A stretch of 50,938 nt of DNA from Prorocentrum cordatum (Eukaryota). Both the position numbers and the translations under genes were made by a program. The stretch covers positions 620,001-670,938 of the forward strand of contig CAUYUJ010000070.1 of NCBI GenBank assembly GCA_963575745.1, in the 5' to 3' direction. Every line of letters starts with the position of its first letter. Position 1 is the first letter of the stretch. The notes beneath the pieces are model-generated. The model made no database searches. It was not told the DNA's origin and was given only the letters and a program-made list of their open reading frames with translations. Positions 1 to 12,796 of the stretch are shown in pieces.

Positions 1-240
1 GAGGCCCGTCAAAACCTCCCCGAACTCACGCGACTGGTGGCTCCTGAGGTTCGATCCCCGCCTGCACCTTCTCGAGAGACGCGTCGGCGGAGAAGCAGCG
101 TGGTCACAAAACTCGAGCGGAAACAGCGGCACCTGTCGTGCTTCCCGCGCATCACTCTCGCCTGTCAGCGTGCATGCCGCGCGGCGACTGCGGCGCGCAC
201 TATCATCGGTCTTGCGGGCAAGGATGGAGGCCTCACTGAT
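1..240 (-). CDS. N-terminal part of a probable pol-like ORF of the 1-2020 element (runs off the window)
   Basis: A stop-free minus frame overlapping the end of ORF 233-1642 reads ...EARQVPLFPLEFCDHAASPPTRLSRRCRRGSNLRSHQSREFGEVLTGL. The LFPL...SRR.RR...L pattern resembles, from recall, the start of pol-like ORFs that follow this gag-like family. No catalytic motif lies inside the window. Confidence 0.4.
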   Translation of the reverse strand, partial: MSEASILARKTDDSARRSRRAACTLTGESDAREARQVPLFPLEFCDHAASPPTRLSRRCRRGSNLRSHQSREFGEVLTGL

Positions 241-1642
241 CTTTGCTCTCCTCCTTCTCCTTGCCCTTCCCTGTGGACTTCCCGCGCTTGAGGGCGACCT
301 TGGCCTCGTCCCTCAGAGCCTTGGCCTTGCTGGTCTGTTTGTCGATCTCTGCCTCCTCTCGCACCTCCTTGGCCACGTAGGTGCGAAGCGCCGGCGCCAC
401 AAGCTGTGCTCGGCGGTTGTAGCCCGAGAACTTATCAGCAATCTCGTAGTTCGGGTTCATAGGGTTCTTACCATGAGCCTCAAGTATAGCCTGCCATCTC
501 CGCCCCAACCTCTCGAAGGCCGCGAGCGAAGCCACGTCAAGCTGATCGTAAGAGATAGCCAGTTCAAAAACCTCCGCCATCACCCGCATCTCGTGAATAG
601 AGCGATCGTTCTCGCTCCATCCCGCCGTCTGGAGATGGCGCTCTAGCCAGAACGTAAGCACCATCGCCAGCTGGGCAAACGACATCATCAGCCACAAGAA
701 AGTGCGAGGACCATCCAAAGGCCAGTCCGAGAAGGCGCCCTCGACCATCTCCTTGACCGAGTCCACCCAGACGCGCTCCCTGCGGTTGAAGGCATTGAAC
801 TTCACCGACAGCGTGCGAACATCCTCGTCCGCCTTCTCGTCAGGCTCCTCACCCGCACCAGGAAGCTGCGGGCCAGCAGGAGCCCCCCGCAGGGCCTGGA
901 GCCCTGTGGGCGAGCCAGGGCCTCCATCACGCTCCTCGGGCGTGTGAGTGCCACCCAGGCCCACCAGCAGCAGGGACTTGCGGCCCGCGAAGTAGCCATC
1001 GAGGTCGTCCACCTTGATTCGCTCGAGCGCCGCGACGACTGAGCCAAACTTGGCGAAGCCGCGGTTCCCGAGCTTGCACGCCACGGACTCCTTAGCGACC
1101 TGAATACTGATCCTCGCCACCTCCTGGTCCCCGTCGAAGACAGGCTCCGACACGACCCAGACCTCGTCATTCTCGGGAGCGTCGGCAAGGTCAGCCTGCC
1201 CATCAGCAGGCTGCGGCAGAGGAGGAGCAGGACCTCGCGGACCGAGGAGGGGCCGACGGAAGTTCCTGATCGCAAACGTGTCATCCCGCACTCTAGCGCG
1301 CGGGATCCCGTCGAGCCCCTCGTCGGCGATGACCTGCGACGCCTCGGCCCTAAGCTCCGAGAACTTGCCCCAGGGCACCGTCTGATCGAAACGGTAGATG
1401 GGCCTCGGTAGCCCCCTCGGCACCGTGCGACCTTTCAGCACCTCAACTCTGATGGGCCCGCGATCTCCCGTGGTCCTCCATTCCTCCGCGTAGACATCGA
1501 AGTCAGGCGAAGCCCCAACCCAGATACGTCTATCATCCAGTGACTTAACTTCCCTCAGCAAAATCCGCTCATGACCGTATTCGTCCCCTTCGTACCAGTA
1601 GATGGCATAGCCACCTGGCAGAGCCTCCACGGCTCCCGCCAT
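233..1642 (-). CDS. Intact intronless 469-aa ORF, probable gag-like protein of a dinoflagellate retroelement (DIRS-like/YR type inferred)
   Basis: Long non-repetitive ORF with motifs DVRTLSV..R.R.W...V, DWPLDGPRT..W, EMRV..EVFELAISYDQLDVASLAAFE..RRWQ and a basic C-terminus. It is intronless, unlike the host genes here. ATG at 1642-1640. Confidence 0.7.
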   Translation of the reverse strand: MAGAVEALPGGYAIYWYEGDEYGHERILLREVKSLDDRRIWVGASPDFDVYAEEWRTTGDRGPIRVEVLKGRTVPRGLPRPIYRFDQTVPWGKFSELRAEASQVIADEGLDGIPRARVRDDTFAIRNFRRPLLGPRGPAPPLPQPADGQADLADAPENDEVWVVSEPVFDGDQEVARISIQVAKESVACKLGNRGFAKFGSVVAALERIKVDDLDGYFAGRKSLLLVGLGGTHTPEERDGGPGSPTGLQALRGAPAGPQLPGAGEEPDEKADEDVRTLSVKFNAFNRRERVWVDSVKEMVEGAFSDWPLDGPRTFLWLMMSFAQLAMVLTFWLERHLQTAGWSENDRSIHEMRVMAEVFELAISYDQLDVASLAAFERLGRRWQAILEAHGKNPMNPNYEIADKFSGYNRRAQLVAPALRTYVAKEVREEAEIDKQTSKAKALRDEAKVALKRGKSTGKGKEKEESKDQ

Positions 1643-2017
1643 CACTGTTCAATGCGACCGAACCCTCCTCGACGAGGGGCAGCAACACGACGAGGACAAC
1701 AAAGCCGAGTGAGCAGACCTCCGACTGCTGCTCCGAGTAGCACTCCCAGGAGGCCGACGTTGGCAAGGGAGACGCCGGGGTCCGTGGGTGCGATGTAGCA
1801 CGTCCTGTTGAAGAAGTCGGGCGGCACCTCGCACACGGGATGACGTTCCAGCGGCAGCGGACACACACACACAGTCGGGTGCCTTCGGACACTCCGAAGG
1901 CCGAGGGCAGTCACAGAAGCAGTCTGGGCACTGGTGTCGTGCGGAAAGTGAAGCTAATGAAGCGAGCTCCCTCGCAAGTCCGACTGCGAAGACACCGATG
2001 CCAACCTCTGGCCTCAT
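1642..2017 (-). pseudogene. Small (~124 aa) Cys-rich membrane protein ORF, frameshifted in a (TG)n run
   Basis: ORF 2017 (hydrophobic N-terminus, CPDCFCDCPRPSECPKAPDCVC) joins ORF 1914 (CPLPLERHPVC...VSLANVGLLGVLLGAAVGGLLTRLCC..RRGGFGRIEQ*) if the TG repeat at ~1861-1873 gains 2 or loses 4 nt. Confidence 0.55.
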
Positions 2018-2069
2018 GCGTATGAGCCGAAAAACTAATTACGAGCGCGCATAGATCATTCACGTACAA

Positions 2070-2191
2070 CTCACATCACCATCAGCATCATGATCATCAG
2101 CATCATCAGTATTATCATCAGCATAATCAACATCATCATCAGCATCATCATCCCCATCCTCATCCTCATCATGATCATGATCATGATCGTG

Positions 2192-2236
<45 letters not shown>

Positions 2237-2545
2237 AGCAGCATCAGTATCATCAGTAGCAGCATCATCATCAGCATCAGCATCAGCAGCATCATCATCG
2301 TCCTCCATCAGCATACACCTCCTCCTCCTCAGTCTTCTTCCCCTTCTCATCGTCATCAGTATCACCGTCATCAGCAGCAGAATAAGCCATCCTTAGCATC
2401 ATCATCATCGTCCTCATGATCCCGCCCCCGCCGTCATGCCTCATGTTCATTGCCTTCACCATCCCCTTCCCCCTCCTCATCCTCCTCCTCCTCCACTCCT
2501 GCTCCGCCTGGCTCCTCATCATCATCCGCCTTATAGTTATCATCA
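2070..2545. repeat. (CAT/CAG)n trinucleotide low-complexity tract
   Basis: Direct inspection. Confidence 0.95.
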
Positions 2546-3499: not shown

Positions 3500-3537
<38 letters not shown>

Positions 3538-4357
3538 GTATACATATATCCATACACAGACAGACACACATACAACCATACAGCCATACATCCATCCATA
3601 CATGCATACAGACAGACAGACAGGCAGACAGACAGACCTACAGGCAGCCGGACATACATACATAAGTACAGACAAACAGACGGACAGACAGACAGACAGG
3701 CAGGCTGGCAGACAGACAGACAAGCATACATACATACGTACATGCATACAGACATACGCACATACGAACATACATACATACATGCATGAATACATACATA
3801 CGCCAATGCGTGCATGCATGAATGCATCCATACATCCATCCATACATCCTTCCACCCATACATCCATCCATCCGTTCATCCAGCCAACCACACAGACAGG
3901 CAGGCAGGCATATATAAATACACACTACAGCAATACATACATACCTACATACATGCATGATTACGTAAACACCTGCATGCATACACATATACACATACAT
4001 ATATACATACAAACGTAGACACACATGCGTACACGCATCCATACATACACGCCGACATGCAAACATGCATACATGCAGACAGGCAGGCAGACATGCATGT
4101 ATGCACTTCTACAAACAGACATACGTACATATAGTCATCAGAATATACATACATAAATGCTTGAATGCAGACAAACATCCATACATACATACATACATGC
4201 GTGGGTGCGTGAGCACACATATACATATATATACATACATACATACATACATAAACATAAACATACATACATAAACATACATACATAAACATACATGCGT
4301 ACATATATACATACATACATACATACATACATACATACATACTTACATACATACATG
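3500..4357. repeat. (TA)n/(TACA)n/(CAGA)n compound microsatellite
   Basis: Direct inspection. Confidence 0.95.
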
Positions 4358-6090: not shown

Positions 6091-6254
6091 CGTTTCCGAG
6101 CGTGGCGGCAGGTAGCGCTGCTTGGGACTTTCGTTTTTTACTTAACAGCGAAATCTGATTGGGTTTCTAGTAGGGTCAAAAGAGAAAGCAACATGACGCC
6201 CCAGGCGGGTCTGGGCGCGATCCGGAGAAATGCCGGGGATTGTTTTAAGCCAGC

Positions 6255-6770
6255 AGTTACACACTTCGTGCTCTTCGAGTTCCCAGAACTCAATTCCCGG
6301 GCCACATTTTGAATGCCCGGAACCAACTGTAAGCCACTTCGTGCACTTCGAGTTCCCAGAACTCCATTCCGGGGCCACATTTTGAATGCCCGGAACCAAC
6401 TGTGGGCCACTTCGTGCTCTTCGAGTTCCCAGAACTCCATTCCGGGGCCACATTTTGAATGCCCGGAACCAACTGTGGGCCACTTCGTGCTCTTCGAGTT
6501 CCCAAAACTCCACTCCCGGGCCACATTTTGAATGCCCGGAACCAACTGTAAGCCATTTCGTGCACTTCGAGTTCCCAGAACTCCATTCCGGGGCCACTTT
6601 TTGAATGCCCGGAGCCAACTGTGAGCCACTTCGTGTTCTTCGAGTTCCCAGAACTTCATTCCCGGGCCACATTTTGAATGCCCGGAGCCAACTGTAGGCC
6701 ACTTCGTGTTCTTCGAGTTCCCAGAATTGCACTCCCGGGCCGCATTTTCAATGCCCGGAGCCAACTGTAG
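6255..6770 (+). repeat. 73-bp tandem minisatellite, about 7 copies
   Basis: Unit gccacttcgtgctcttcgagttcccagaactccattccggggccacattttgaatgcccggaaccaactgtgg; successive ORF starts are 73 nt apart (6313, 6386). There are no unique spacers. Confidence 0.95.
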
Positions 6771-6902
6771 GAGGAGCAGGGGCAAGAGCACGAGGAGGAG
6801 GACGAGCAAGACGAGGAGGACGAGGACGAGCACGAGGAGGAGGAGGAGGAGGAAACTCGCATCGGGGGAAGGCTAAGAATGCTATGGCCTGCATTCGAAA
6901 CC

Positions 6903-9900
6903 TTATTGGCGCGGTCCTGCCTGTCCAGGAAGGGCGACAGGAGGCGCGCCCCAGAGCACGGACAGGTCAGCGCGCCTCCGCACTACCTGTTGAAATCGGG
7001 CCTGTGCAATGGCAATGACAGATCGAGCAGCAACAGGCCGAGAACGAATGGTGTGGTAAGTGATGAAACACGCGTCAATGTACATCACAATCGAAATCAA
7101 TGCTGGGTCAGGAAGTGGGAAAAGCTTATAGACCTGACACCTAGACAAACCATCGGCGAGACAAAACTGGGCGGGGAGATGGGGCAGGAAGATAGTAATA
7201 CAGTCAAACCTAGGGCACTCGAGAACGCGTTTAAGATGGTCGGCCTCAGAGAGGCCACACATCGGGCAGGCAAGAGTGGCCGACCGAAAGCGCCCAGAAG
7301 TGCACCAAGCATTGCACACCGTCTTGAAAAAAGACGACAGGACCGAGGGCGGAACTTTCTGAGCGGCCCTCAGGAAGGCCAGGATAAAACATTTGATATT
7401 CCAGGCAGACATGTGCGGGTCGTATGTTCTAGCACGGGCTATTACACAGGCGGTCACATCTTGGCGAAGGGGTTGACGGAGAGCCAGCTCTGCCTCTTTC
7501 TGGAGGGGGAACGCATATTGGGGCATGCCAGGGATAGCAGTCATCACGCCATAGTTGTTAATCATAGCCTTTAAGATACTTGTTTTCCACCAGGGGTGTT
7601 CAGTCCATGCACGGCAGCAGTCTTCGTCTTCTTCGAAGGCGCTCAGGTCGTTCCGAATCTCAAAAAAAGGCGGGCGAGTAGAACGCAGCACGGTACATGG
7701 CCGCGCGGCTGACGAGCGCAAGCGACCGTGCCTCAACAGGAAACCCGAGCTGTTTGAGGCCCATCATCATCTTGGCAGTAATAGCACCGTTGGAGCCCAT
7801 CGCGAGCTTCTGGAGCCCCGACCTCTCAAGCTTCAGTTACATCTGGGCAATTGGCACAAGCTGGCACAGAAAAGTGAGCACCGAGAAAGCGATCATGTTG
7901 TACTGAGCGACAGTTTTGATGAGCCCTAACCCGAGGCCGCGAATGAGGCGGATGCGGCGGACGAACTTCTGAAGGGCGGGTTCCCAGGACGCATCGATAC
8001 TATCAGGACCAAGACCCGGTACGTTCATCCCGAGGACCCCCAGCGCGGCCAGGAAATCAGCCTGACTCATTCCGAGAAGGACCACGACAGTTTTGCCCAG
8101 GTTGACGCACGATCCAAATCCAGGGCCAGCCAGGGCCCACACGCTCATGTTCAGGAAAAAAGCTTTGACAATGTCTCCAGAGCCGAGGCCGACATCGTCT
8201 GCAAAGGCTCCCAGGGAATGGGCGGGACGCGGCAGCAGGAGGCAGATCTTGCGCAGCACTGGGTCCACGGCCAGCGCAAAGAGAGAACCGCTGGCAGGAC
8301 ATCCTTGCTTGATGCCGCGGGCGAGCCAATAACCGATGTCCCGATGCATACCACGATACGATATAGATATCCAAACCCCTCGATAGAGACACTTCAAGGC
8401 TTTGATGAAGAAGGTGGGCACTCCCATGGCATCAAGCGTTGCGAACATAGCTTCGCGCAGCAGACTGGGAAACGCGGCACGTACATCGTAGAAGATGAGG
8501 CCGGCCTGTAAACAATGTCGTTGCACATACCAGTGGAGCGCGCAATACTCGAGCTCAAGAATATTCTCGTTCATATTCCCCCCACCCACGAACCCCCTCT
8601 GCTGCTTGATGCACGTAAATTGACATATGGCACTCAAGGGCTTGTTGAGAGCTAGTGAGATCAGCTTATTCGAAGTGCACGACAATGTGAGCGGCCTAGT
8701 AGCAGAGGGCTTGCGCATACAGAGCTGCCCGTCCCCTTCCTCTACTCCTTTGGCTAAAAATATGTTTCATCCATGGTTAAAGTCCCTGTGGCATTCACCC
8801 TGATCCAGAATATGATGATACAACCGATATAAAGCAGACGTCCCCAGAGTCCCAGAGATGCTCCAACCGCTATACGGGATCCCGTCGGGGCCAGGGGCGC
8901 TGTCGTGAGCCTTACCCATCATCTTGACAAAAACTCCTCCTCCTCCAGCCTCCACTGAATATTGCCAGGAATCTGGGGGACATCAGAGAGCAGCTCGTAC
9001 ATGGCCGCGGGTTCAGCATCCACGGCTCTGTGCACTTGTCCCCAGTGTCGGGCGAGTTCTCTCGCTCCTTCACGCGGGTCAAAAATTGGCGCCCCGAGCG
9101 GGTCCGCAATCGCCTGCAACGAAACACTGGCGCCTCGAGCTGTCCAGGCAGATCGGTAAGTGTATAACGTGTTGGTATGTTGTTGTTTCCGTGTTTGGGA
9201 CATGTCTGGGTCATTCTGGACAAGCTCGATCTGGCCATCGATCTGCTGCCGCTTGAGCGAGGCCAGCAGGTGATGGAAGCCGACAAACTCCGAGAACCGA
9301 CAGGACTCGACATCAAAGAACTGCTGGAGCCTGGGGTACGCCTGCACGGCACGCCTCAAGACAGACTGAGACCCAGATCTTTCGGCCCGCATAGCAGCCA
9401 ACGCCCAAGACACGTATTCTGGGAGCGAATGAGCCCCGCGCTGTTCCAAAATGCCCAAGACCTTCCTTGACGCCGCCTGGATGCCCTCCCGCACTTCCTC
9501 CACCGCCTCCAAGGGATTCTCCGAAAGCGGGCCAGCCCCTTCCAAAATCTCGCCCAGGACCTTCGGAAACATAGGATGCTTGGTGACCCAGGACTTGACC
9601 GTGAGGATCCCGTCGGGGCATTTGGGGGCCAATACCACATACACAGGAACATGATCAGATAGTGTGCTGGGGTCTGCAGGGCACCCAAGGACGCCCGAGG
9701 ATGGCGCGAAATCGAGCAGCACGCCAGGTGGGATACTAGTGTAAATGCGATCCAGACGAGCGAGCGACTTGATGGCCGTGCGGCCCTCGACAGACTCCTC
9801 CACCCTGTGGGTAAACTGCGGCTGCTCAACCTCTGTCAAGAACGGAAACACCTCGAATAGTCGAGAGAATAGCCCGAAGAGCAGGTTTGACATTAATGAT

Positions 9901-10140
9901 ACATCCTCCAGAGTGGGGGTTGTCCATGAACGAGGCAAAACTTTTGAGTTGAAAAACTTCCCGCTCTAACGCTCTAAAGCATTCGTCCGACCCCCGAGCC
10001 TCCTGGATACACACTATATCGTGTTGTTGAATCAACTTGATAACAAACCTGATCTTTGCTTTATGGGCGTGCTGGGGGGCGACGATGGCACCAAAGAGCG
10101 AGCGGGTCTTCCACGACACAATTGAGAATCGCTGAGCAGG
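6903..10140 (-). mobile_element. Decayed non-LTR retrotransposon (LINE) with APE endonuclease, reverse transcriptase and C-terminal Cys motif; several frameshifts
   Basis: APE motifs: IVSWKTRSL, DIVCIQEA, ARLDRIY, SDHVPV. RT motifs: SAPGPDGIPY, RPLTLSCTSNKLIS, QRGF, FYDVRAAFPSL, GIKQGCPASGSLF, AFADDVG. C-terminal motif CPMCG..DHLKRVLECP. These are split over ORFs 9826-10428, 8919-9938, 8767-8955, 7837-8718 and 6903-7736. Confidence 0.93.
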
Positions 10141-10849
10141 CAGGAAAGGACGGCAATCAGCAGGCAACGGCGGCCAGCTGCTGCCATGGTGCGAAGAACC
10201 CGACGAAGAGGAGCTGGACGAAGAAGAAGAGGTAGAACTCGCCGATGATGTGCTAAAAGTGCTCGAGGAAGTGGAGCTCGTTGAAGAGGCTGTTGCTCTC
10301 CTGCGTTGTCGTCGCCGCCGTCGAATTCGAACTGGTAGCGCATCAACATCTTGATGTGACCCGACAATGTCCTGGTCGTCCGCTGCCGCCAGAGTGCCCG
10401 TGCTCGACGAGGCGGTGCTGGCACCCACACAGCGCTGGACACCCAGGAGGAGGAGCAGGAGAAGGAGGACGAGCAGGAGGAGGAGGACGAGGACTCCTAC
10501 ATGCGAGGACGAGCAGGAGGACGAGCGACTGCGAGGACACCAGAATTCTACACCAGGACTCCTACATGAATCTCAAGGGCAATGCTTCCAGATATGCTTC
10601 TACACATCGCTGTTAGGTTGCTTTGCTTGGATAATTATGCTGGCAGGCGTTTAAAAACATGGTATGGGGAGAGGGCGGCAACCCGAGAATCATGTTCCCG
10701 GGAAGCTTTCCGGAAGCATGATTTGTCCGGCTCTCTTAAGAGGGTGGGCTCTGGGGGCTTACCGAGGAGCTCTTTTTGGCCTTGTCGGCAAGCCTATTGG
10801 AAACATGGTTGGGGCGATGGGCGGAAGCCCAAGGAATCATGTTCCAGGA

Positions 10850-12366
10850 AAGCTCTGGGAAATGCGATTTACCGAGGTCTCTTGGGGGCCCGCAGGGGGC
10901 TTCCCTGGGGGGCGCTTGGGGGCTTATTGGGGCTTCTGGGGTGCCTCTTGGGAGCCTCACGGGGCTTCTTGGGAGCCTCTTGATGGCCTCCGGGGGCGTC
11001 CTAGGAGCCTCTCAGGCCAGAGACCTTGAAATGTCGCGCTCTTCGGGCCCTCTTGGGTCGCTCTTGGGGCGCTCTCGAGGCCCTCGTGACTTATCTGGGG
11101 AGAGCCTCCTGGGCCGTCTCTGGTCTTTCCTGGGGAGCCTCTTCGGCCGTCTTGGAGCGATCTGAAGGGCCTCTGACGCCGTGCGGAACATGCGAGAGCG
11201 CAAAATGCGAGCCGGGGAGGCGGAACATGCGAGAGCGCAAAATTGCGGGGCCCTTTGGAGGGGCCTCTGGAGGCGCTCTTGGGGCGTCTTGGTGGCGTCG
11301 TCGGCCGTCCTGAGGCCATCTTCGGCGTGTCTGGGGCCTCTTGGGGCTGTCTTGGCAATCTTTAGGGCCCTCTTGGCGTGTCGCGGCGTGTTTGGGAGCG
11401 GGCCCGGGCAGTCCCGGGAGCCCTGGGGGCTGTTGAATGCTAGGTGTTGTCTTGGAGGCGGAGGCTGTTGAGTGCAGGGTGGCGCGTGCTACGCGGAAGG
11501 CGGGCGAGCGGCCGGGCGGGCGGCGGGCGGGCGGGTGGCGGGCGGGCGGGCGGGCGGGTCGGGATGTGAATGAATTCCTTAAGGGTGCTCTCTTGCAGCG
11601 GGAGCTTGTTGGAGACTGAAGCTGTGTACAGAGTGGTGCGTGCTACGCGGACGGCGGGCGGGCGGCGGCGGGTGCCCTAGGTGGTGGGTCAGAGGCCTCA
11701 TGGGTGTTGGTTTGGATCTCGTGGTTGGCCTGTCGGGGACGTCGTGAAGGCAGTTTCGCAGCTTCTCGGTAGCCATTTTGAAACCGTTGTGGGACCTCCT
11801 CGGGCCTGTTTTGTGGCCTCTTGAGGCCTTGTTTGGGTCTCCTGGGTGCCTCTCGGGGGCCTCCTGGGGCCTCTGGGGGGCTCCTTGGGGCCTCCTGGGG
11901 CACTCTTCAAGCGGGAAGGTCGAATTTTGGAGTCGTGGTCCCCCTCCTGGGCGCATCATGGGGCCGTCTTGGGGCTCTCTTGGGCGCTTCTGGGGCCGTC
12001 TGGGGGCCCTCTTGGGCCGTCTTGGGGCGCTCTTGGGGGCCTCTGGAGCCGGCCTGGAACGTCGGACAGTCGAAAAGGCTGGAAGGCCAAAATCGATCCA
12101 AAACCTCCGTAAAATTAACGATGTTGGTCTCTTGAAGCGCTCGGGAGAGGCGTCTTGAAGCGTCGTGGAGTGCCTTGGGGGGGCTTCTCGGGCCGTCTTG
12201 GGCCTATCTTGGGCGTCCAGGAGCGGTCTTTCGGCGACTCGGGGGCCCGCTTGGACCGTCTGGGGAGCGTCTGGAGGCCCTCCAGGACTATTCTGGACCT
12301 CCCCGGCCGCCCCGTCCTCCCATGGGGGGTCGGGGCACCTGTTTGTGGGCCCCGGGTCTGCCCCGC

Positions 12367-12370
<4 letters not shown>
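10850..12370 (-). repeat. Further 'cttggggcc' family copies with a (GGGC)n patch at ~11510-11560
   Basis: Same degenerate units as 4465-6090; ends at (AT)n. Confidence 0.75.
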
Positions 12371-12427
<57 letters not shown>

Positions 12428-12446
12428 TATACATATACACATACAA

Positions 12447-12493
<47 letters not shown>

Positions 12494-12564
12494 CATGCAT
12501 ATACATATGCATATACATATACATATACACATACACATACATAAACATATACATATACATATAC

Positions 12565-12604
<40 letters not shown>

Positions 12605-12762
12605 GCAAATACATATACATATACAAATACACATACATATACATATACATATATATATATATATGTACATGTGCATGTAGACATACATGTACACATACAT
12701 ATACATATACACATACACTTACACATACACATACACATACACATACATATACATATACAGAT

Positions 12763-12796
<34 letters not shown>

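Follow-up and report, generated by a model that had tools for sequence, protein, structure and literature searches.

At the left edge of a 50,938-nucleotide stretch of the genome of Prorocentrum cordatum (assembly GCA_963575745.1, contig CAUYUJ010000070.1, positions 620,001 to 670,938; the whole stretch is called the window below), three co-oriented open reading frames (ORFs) lie on the minus strand between position 1 and ~2070 with zero intergenic space, in the order ORF0, gag-like ORF and pol frame. The question arises of what kind of element is encoded there and whether its small first ORF is a gene. The original prediction, made from the letters of the DNA, was a three-ORF cassette comprising a membrane protein, a gag-like and a pol-like ORF; the frames were found at that place, on one strand and without intergenic space, but the membrane-protein ORF is split over two frames and the third frame has no start codon. 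We conclude, with a probability of about 0.8, that window 1 to ~2070 corresponds to the 5' third of a single copy of a dinoflagellate retrotransposon, multicopy and DIRS-like (tyrosine-recombinase), which carries an extra first gene for a small membrane protein. The predicted gene order of the lineage is 5' repeat A, ORF0, the gag-like gene, pol with reverse transcriptase (RT), RNase H, tyrosine recombinase and DNA methyltransferase, and then the repeats B, A and B. The features of the window copy are, from its 5' end (HMM, hidden Markov model; TM, transmembrane):

2018..2070, minus strand: putative 5' leader or terminal-repeat region, probable, with multicopy contig cover up to ~2070
1862..2017, minus strand: 5' part of ORF0 (frame of the ATG at 2017) with an N-terminal hydrophobic helix and CxCxC, from sequence, hydropathy and a layout like that of the N-terminus in the ORF0 family
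~1861..1873, no strand assigned: (TG)n tract, meeting point of the two ORF0 frames and putative frameshift site of the window copy, from sequence
1642..1953, minus strand: 3' part of ORF0 with more Cys, a TM helix (1773..1711), a basic tail with RRGG (1677..1657) and the stop TGA at 1644-1642, from HMM and phmmer
1643..2014, minus strand: ATG-free interval from the ORF0 ATG to the gag ATG, from triplet counts against shuffles
1640..1644, minus strand: TGATG, in which the ORF0 stop and the gag start share one base, from sequence
233..1642, minus strand: gag-like ORF, 469 codons plus stop, from the gag HMM (430.6 bits, sole copy in the window)
1..312, minus strand: beginning of pol (N-terminal part), frame +1 with respect to gag, without ATG and cut by the window edge, from the pol N-terminus HMM

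The gag-like ORF runs from the ATG at 1642 to 236, which is exactly the 469 codons counted originally, and is closed by a TGA at 235-233; starting from a GTG at 1645 it would have 470 codons. A Pfam search with four window ORFs gave no family at E<=1, and an Rfam search with window 1-2400 gave no match. An exhaustive search revealed 1297 cluster representatives of the gag-like family at E<=1e-3 and 535 at E<=1e-10; an ORF of 469 codons with 1297 relatives is far beyond chance. Named members come from P. cordatum, Symbiodinium natans and Symbiodinium sp. CCMP2592, and the proteins closest to the window cassette are those of P. cordatum itself. One gene model of this species (P0006) contains a copy that is 94% identical over gag residues 270-470, joined to a SET-domain gene. 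The best 150 matches include three long proteins with RT-like motifs after the family region, and fusions of gag and pol were found in 10 annotated proteins of Symbiodinium and Prorocentrum. Of 80 proteins with the gag N-terminal domain, 76 start at their own Met, without other domains and no more than ~30 residues from where the profile begins; three carry 73-99 extra N-terminal residues with a hydrophobic segment, two of them also with a Cys motif, and these extensions were a first hint of a membrane-coding stretch ahead of gag elsewhere. Dinoflagellate annotations of such proteins (P0006, P0061, P0065, P0183, P0209, P0210) read 'pksN', 'AMY1.1' or 'CACNA1H' or are fusions with host genes, e.g. 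with the SET-domain gene, and are likely artefacts. A search of metagenome, viral and prokaryote genome contigs with the gag alignment gave no related loci.

Related loci were obtained by way of pol. The pol part of a Symbiodinium fusion protein led to 52 dinoflagellate proteins, and an alignment of 14 of these to 64 metagenome loci, on which the family-level conclusions rest. In 39 of the 64 loci the gag-like HMM matched directly upstream of pol on the same strand. Split direct repeats of the arrangement A-coding-B-A-B, with 98.7-100% identity, were found in four loci (L014, L005, L063 and L054). In L014, repeat A at 6142-6210 equals 12600-12668 and repeat B at 12332-12408 equals 12690-12766, both with 100% identity. 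This locus (6142-12766) holds an apparently intact full element of ~6.6 kb with open frames for ORF0 (6235-6570), gag (6518-7927) and pol (7927-12285). Could the gag-like family be a host or domesticated gene family which merely lies near retroelements and is not the element's gag? This is most improbable: the lack of a capsid-like fold, a zinc knuckle or a Pfam family and the gene model joined to a SET-domain gene would fit such an origin, but the ORF lies between the 5' repeat and pol within the repeat-bounded unit, its stop overlaps the start of pol in 19 of 31 loci, nearly all proteins with the N-terminal domain (the 76 of 80 mentioned above) start at their own Met without other domains, and the family is multicopy with many broken copies.

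All family matches of pol were below the curated cut-offs, yet they were consistently ordered along the protein. RVT_1 was matched in 7 of the 14 aligned pol proteins and in four of eight intact locus ORFs (best E 6.9e-4, sub-threshold), the RNase H-type family DNA_pol_viral_C in four of 14 and two of eight, respectively (sub-threshold), and Phage_int_SAM_1 in two of the 14 proteins (best E 2.9e-4, sub-threshold). PHROG families of DNA methyltransferases were matched in seven of the eight intact loci at pol residues ~1210-1400 (best E 2.8e-6). Near the C-terminus of pol, a nearly invariant R-H-x-G-x-S and a G-x-W block were taken for recombinase boxes by eye; pol gave no match to an integrase-type family. 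UniRef names one of the proteins (P0168) 'Reverse transcriptase domain-containing protein'. Six loci (L012, L014, L016, L021, L055 and L063) have a single ORF of 1421-1515 codons, stop to stop, which extends from the pol N-terminus through the methyltransferase region. The RT and recombinase that had been expected downstream of the gag-like family are thus represented by a pol with signals of RT, RNase H, tyrosine recombinase and methyltransferase, directly downstream in the 39 loci and in the fusion proteins.

The window contains the beginning of such a pol. The frame 312..1 stays open over 104 codons until it leaves the window, and it overlaps gag along the final 26 gag codons. An HMM of the pol N-terminus, made from 52 distinct segments, ranked it first of 1113 pieces (E 6.5e-4, 15.8 bits), the next piece having an E of 0.26, and aligned residues 58-104 of this frame (47 residues) up to the window edge. 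The N-terminal block shared by the relatives consists of L-F-P-L-P, a basic S-R-R-x-x-Q-R and then A-L-N-W-M, and the LFPL motif is present in the window frame at ~126..115. When pol N-termini were compared with the window tail directly by tblastn, the result was too noisy for use. Among the contig rows listed there is no indel between 58 and 240, and therefore the layout of the pol start may be shared by sister copies of the window element. At 233-238 the window has GTGA where most relatives have ATGA, and all contigs have another base at 238, which turns the Q of the last gag codon into E.

The copy number was assessed by aligning contigs of four sequencing runs to window 1..2400. The region 1..2070 is multicopy: run X1 gave 272 contig pieces with 85-100% identity, 41 of them at >=99%, 92 at 95-99%, 94 at 90-95% and 45 below 90%. 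A single-copy locus, which would have spoken against the cassette as first described, is not what was found. Among the gag substitutions between copies, 15 of 27 listed fell on third codon positions (hand count, 40 of 264 rows).

Next to gag and pol, an ORF in another frame precedes gag in the loci that hold the gag start. The encoded proteins have 87-128 aa, open with M-K/R-x-E and then a hydrophobic helix that ends in G-hydrophobic-K/R, and share a CxCxCxC motif, one TM helix and a basic tail of the type S-x-R-R-R-G-x-G-V (RRRGxG); the N-terminal helix and the TM helix are ~35-75 residues apart. NxT sites occur in several members. An HMM made from 17 of these sequences was run on the 64 loci and the window, cut from stop to stop into 10,077 pieces. 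It gave 29 matches with E-values of 5e-33 to 6.6e-6, all directly upstream of gag on the strand of pol, and recognised 29 of the 30 loci with a gag start; 12 of the 29 had no part in model building. The exception is L054, which has a TM ORF ahead of gag that the HMM did not recognise. TM hydropathy was >=1.6 in 23 of 25 members and CxCxC was present in 19 of 25. Median net charge was -1 before and +3 after the TM helix, from which a cytoplasmic tail is predicted. The architecture was kept despite saturation of synonymous sites in 31 of 36 pairs. In L014 and L005 the ORF0 ATG lies 23-25 nt after the 5' repeat A; ORF0 therefore comes first among the ORFs of the element. Its overlap with the gag start amounts to 52-61 nt in the larger locus group. 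The five loci L051, L053, L055, L057 and L063 form a second subgroup, with a tail of the type K-G-K...G-V-Y-G...K-G-L-Q in place of RRRGxG and an ORF0 stop that touches the gag ATG, as opposed to the overlap of ~55 nt elsewhere. A rebuilt ORF0 HMM also gave a weak match far from the element in L024 (10644-10766, minus strand, E 0.0047), maybe a fragment of another copy or chance. Pfam searches with seven ORF0 proteins gave only sub-threshold matches to Neurensin and DUF4605, and atlas searches with ORF0 and with gag gave nothing usable.

Judged by these comparisons, ORF0 is a conserved gene for a putative small membrane protein in front of the gag-like gene, and the expectation that homologues would have a small TM ORF upstream was borne out. 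The same holds for conserved synteny and terminal repeats, with gag-pol in 39 of 64 loci, ORF0 in 29 of 30 and A-coding-B-A-B in four. A membrane or envelope-like accessory protein had also been proposed; its first half stands, a conserved small membrane ORF being present, but an envelope-like nature is not supported, 87-128 aa being far too small for a classical envelope; retroelement envelopes and viral fusogens have a large ectodomain, usually of >300 aa, with a fusion peptide or loops.

How does the window copy compare with this family? The frame of the ATG at 2017 encodes the hydrophobic N-terminus (maximum of 1.58 on the Kyte-Doolittle scale over 15 residues) and, from residue 33, CxCxC, and then continues as a non-membrane ORF of 122 aa to 1649. 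The frame of the TM helix lies one base off; it is open over 1953..1645, has no ATG, its only start being a GTG at 1914. Its TM helix has a hydropathy of 2.06 and is followed by a net charge of +5. The piece 1645..1953 was the only match with E<10 of the ORF0 HMM beyond the loci's own ORF0s among the 10,077 pieces (E 0.033), and phmmer with this piece gave the ORF0 of L020 as the sole non-self match (E 0.0066). In position, order of features and tail motif the piece is like the members of the family. Other copies differ at the break, as their contigs show: four bases are missing at 1861 in X1 (depth 11.3 of 25.7) and in X3 (2.22 of 2.22), and one base is missing at 1829 in three contigs of X1; each of these gaps joins the ATG-2017 frame to the TM frame. 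Contigs of X2 lack two bases at 1861, which would not join the frames. Since some sister copies carry indels that join both frames, the window ORF0 is best read as a frameshifted copy of a gene which at least some sister copies appear to carry intact. Programmed frameshifting within the (TG)n tract was considered as well and rejected in favour of this simpler reading, because other copies differ in the length of the tract. With ORF0 frameshifted in (TG)n and a pol start without ATG, the window copy of the element looks inactive.

The split of ORF0 could also be taken as a sign that a lone gag-like relic is flanked by small frames which are chance ORFs of G+C-rich DNA. The first 4 kb of the window, with a G+C content of 62%, contain 36 ORFs of >=50 aa, and by length alone the two short frames are not beyond chance; comparative data support both. 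Next to the split, the third frame without ATG and the weak sequence matches of ORF0 would fit chance, but exactly these pieces were the sole non-self matches of the ORF0 HMM and of phmmer, the pol N-terminus HMM placed 312..1 first of 1113 pieces, not a single ATG occurs in the 372 nt before gag (see below), other copies lack the four bases at the break, so that the frames are joined, and the entire region 1..2070 is multicopy. We regard this explanation as largely refuted and give it very little credence.

The interval between the ORF0 ATG and the gag ATG is poor in ATG. In 18 loci with a total of 5088 nt, 8 ATG were counted versus 80.6 expected from shuffles, and the same interval contains 92 CAT; equal lengths inside gag contain 132 ATG. 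The 372-nt interval of the window holds 0 ATG (3.85 from shuffles) and 5 CAT; 6 ATG occur in an equal length of gag immediately downstream. The base after the start codon (+4) is mostly A or C rather than G in ORF0; in gag it is mostly G (ATGG). The ATG-poor interval and the start contexts have the pattern that is expected of leaky scanning past a weaker first AUG. The overlap of the pol ATG with the gag stop in 19 of 31 loci has the form ATGA, and in four more loci the pol ATG lies 7 nt before the end of the stop; ATGA overlaps would fit termination-reinitiation. ORF0 stop and gag start touch in the window and in L051, L053, L055, L057 and L063. A model of expression would be as follows. One polycistronic RNA would carry ORF0, gag and pol; some ribosomes would start at the first AUG, that of ORF0, and others would scan through the AUG-free stretch to the gag AUG (leaky scanning). 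Where stop and start touch (TGATG, as in the window), reinitiation at gag would be possible as well, and pol would be made by termination-reinitiation at ATGA.

Both steps have precedents. The bicistronic vpu-env mRNA of HIV-1 is the textbook case of leaky scanning past a weaker first AUG across an AUG-free stretch. As would be the case for ORF0 and gag, a small single-pass membrane protein comes first and the downstream ORF is reached by leaky scanning; there is no sequence relation, however, and vpu lies late in the genome and is read from a spliced mRNA, whereas ORF0 is the first ORF and precedes gag. Stop-start coupling at AUGA or UGAUG is known from the capsid protein and RNA-dependent RNA polymerase of victoriviruses, M1/BM2 of influenza B virus and the non-LTR element SART1. 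The present lineage resembles them in the ATGA at gag/pol and in the TGATG at ORF0/gag of the window, where reinitiation is suggested by the sequence.

The same signals raise the main rival explanation for ORF0, namely that it is mainly a regulatory upstream ORF which tunes the flow of ribosomes to gag and pol and whose peptide is of little matter. Its place as first ORF after the 5' repeat, the overlap of 52-61 nt with the gag start in the larger locus group, its fast evolution and the start-codon contexts of a leaky first AUG are all in keeping with such a function. It would, however, not need to keep a length of 90-130 aa, nor the TM helix (23 of 25), CxCxC (19 of 25), the RRRGxG tail and the N-terminal helix across saturated synonymous divergence, and the tail motif is kept in the window although it does not overlap gag there. 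Regulation would explain the position of ORF0 but not the architecture of its protein, and the two roles are compatible. We consider it unlikely that regulation is the main role, and quite probable that ORF0 encodes a functional protein of the element.

At 2074-2299, a (CAT)75 microsatellite, (ATG)n when read on the element strand, adjoins the element on its 5' side, immediately before the ATG-free stretch; it is probably flanking DNA, and the alignment of reads passed over it as a repeat. Simple repeats are very abundant in the window, with long (ACATACAT)n-type arrays at 3504-4356, and a 73-nt unit is repeated seven times in tandem at 6262-6771 (92% matches).

The question had been raised whether the 469-aa ORF has a retroviral capsid fold; structure searches of PDB and BFVD found none. 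In an AlphaFold model of gag (40 sequences), two small beta-barrels (residues ~10-110 and ~155-230) precede a conserved C-terminal domain of helices (~270-460). This helical domain, folded alone (residues 270-470, window 236-838, 76 sequences), reached a pLDDT (predicted local distance difference test) of 91.2 and a pTM (predicted template modelling score) of 0.81. The first barrel resembles Tudor, PWWP, BAH and WYL barrels at Z 5-6.2 only, which is a common arrangement. The helical domain had no match at Z>=5 among 48,161 PDB representatives (best Z 4.4), and with Foldseek the best E was 0.66 in PDB and 0.35 in BFVD, no capsid chain standing out; the model may represent a fold that is not yet solved. 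A PDB sequence search with gag gave only a coiled-coil-type match to Vipp1 (E 0.19). The C-terminus of gag is a Lys/Gly/Glu-rich tail without Cys or His. 'Gag-like' is thus a name by position, not by fold.

Several observations weigh against a DIRS-like element with a membrane-protein gene. The window has no pol body; only the pol N-terminus is present, and a complete element is unproven here. ATG is absent from its pol frame, and the GTGA where gag stops lies in another frame, which closes after 23 codons, so that the ATGA scheme does not account for the translation of pol in the sublineage of the window. The assignments of RT, RNase H and recombinase are weak, being drawn from sub-threshold Pfam matches, motifs read by eye and one paper, and PDB sequence and NCBIfam searches with pol proteins and profiles gave nothing relevant. 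The gag-like protein has no CCHC zinc knuckle (Pfam, E<=1) and no detectable capsid fold. ORF0 evolves fast (nonsynonymous divergence, dN, of 0.64-1.12 between loci), and its ratio to synonymous divergence (dN/dS) was computable in five pairs only, where it amounted to 0.31-0.70. The ORF0 HMM did not match the N-terminal extensions of P0028 and P0065, and the locus counts include two duplicate pairs (L011=L031, L024=L027). The ORF0 sequence of the window is only weakly similar to those of the metagenome loci (E 0.03 and 0.007), and joining the two frames with an X at the break made the match poorer (E 0.55) in comparison with the TM frame by itself, probably owing to the Cys-rich part, which is about twice as long in the window.

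What could the ORF0 protein do? As a small accessory membrane protein with a cytoplasmic tail, it would tie the assembly of gag and RNA to an internal membrane, or it would alter a membrane. We favour a role as membrane anchor or organiser of gag/RNA assembly via the basic cytoplasmic tail, a role in pore formation, egress or fusion being the bolder alternative; taken by themselves, a membrane tether for gag is a tentative assignment that may well be wrong, and pore, egress or fusion is improbable. A predicted complex of the L014 gag with the ORF0 tail had a score of 0.00; this is no verdict and counts neither for nor against. Reovirus FAST proteins, of ~100-130 aa, combine a short outer part that contains Cys with a single TM helix and a polybasic tail on the inner side. 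ORF0 resembles them in architecture only; there is no match in sequence or family, and ORF0 has the N-terminal hydrophobic helix in addition. At the speculative end, ORF0 would act as a pared-down version of a Vpu- or FAST-like protein: it would collect gag/RNA particles at a membrane and help them toward release or passage from cell to cell, e.g. at gamete fusion. The lineage would be on its way toward or from an infectious life style, and the helical gag domain would be a new particle-forming fold; we think this scenario unlikely.

Of the DIRS order, the classification of Goodwin and Poulter reportedly includes elements with split direct repeats (Ngaro/PAT-like). These are said to share with the present lineage the order of gag, RT/RNase H and tyrosine recombinase, the split direct repeats and the overlapping ORFs. 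The present gag-like protein differs from theirs in its Tudor/SH3-type beta-barrels and a helical domain without structural match. To our knowledge, no member of the order is described with a small membrane-protein ORF ahead of gag.

The closest described elements are the DIRS of Symbiodinium. According to the main text of de Mendoza et al. 2018 (PMC5890265), their RT aligns poorly with Pfam, DNA methyltransferases (DNMTs) are found in pol and the repeats have the order A-coding-B-A-B. Both SymbioDIRS-Dnmt3 and the DNMT-free DIRS described there are like the present lineage in the dinoflagellate host, the Pfam-divergent RT and the repeats, and SymbioDIRS-Dnmt3 also in the DNA methyltransferase in pol (PHROG, 7/8 loci here), a likeness at the level of DNA methyltransferases in general. 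In contrast, SymbioDIRS is described with Pol and a separate recombinase ORF (PMC5890265), whereas the recombinase-like motif and the methyltransferase of the present loci are in one pol ORF of ~1450 aa. Transcription of SymbioDIRS is reported to be biased to the 5' region (PMC5890265), which is the region where ORF0 and gag lie in the present lineage. The words 'gag' and 'capsid' do not occur in the main text of PMC5890265 and 'membrane' is used only for laboratory filters and blots; therefore, the gag-like ORF and ORF0 are not described in that main text, and its supplementary figures may show 5' ORFs. Full-text searches of the literature, including PMC5890265, PMC3266345 and bioRxiv 10.64898/2026.05.21.726589 and leaving supplements aside, found no description of a gag-like or membrane ORF for dinoflagellate DIRS, nor of a small membrane ORF for any DIRS.

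Few retrotransposons are as little understood as the DIRS-like elements, and in dinoflagellates their description has centred on pol and its methyltransferase. A conserved small membrane-protein gene as first ORF is a component that is absent from the descriptions found. In public dinoflagellate gene sets the ORFs of the family are labelled 'pksN' or 'unnamed protein product' or are fused to host genes, and family profiles would clean many of these models. Furthermore, the AUG-free interval and the ATGA overlap suggest how three proteins could be made from one RNA, by leaky scanning and then termination-reinitiation, which is a concrete hypothesis for dinoflagellates, whose translation control is little known.

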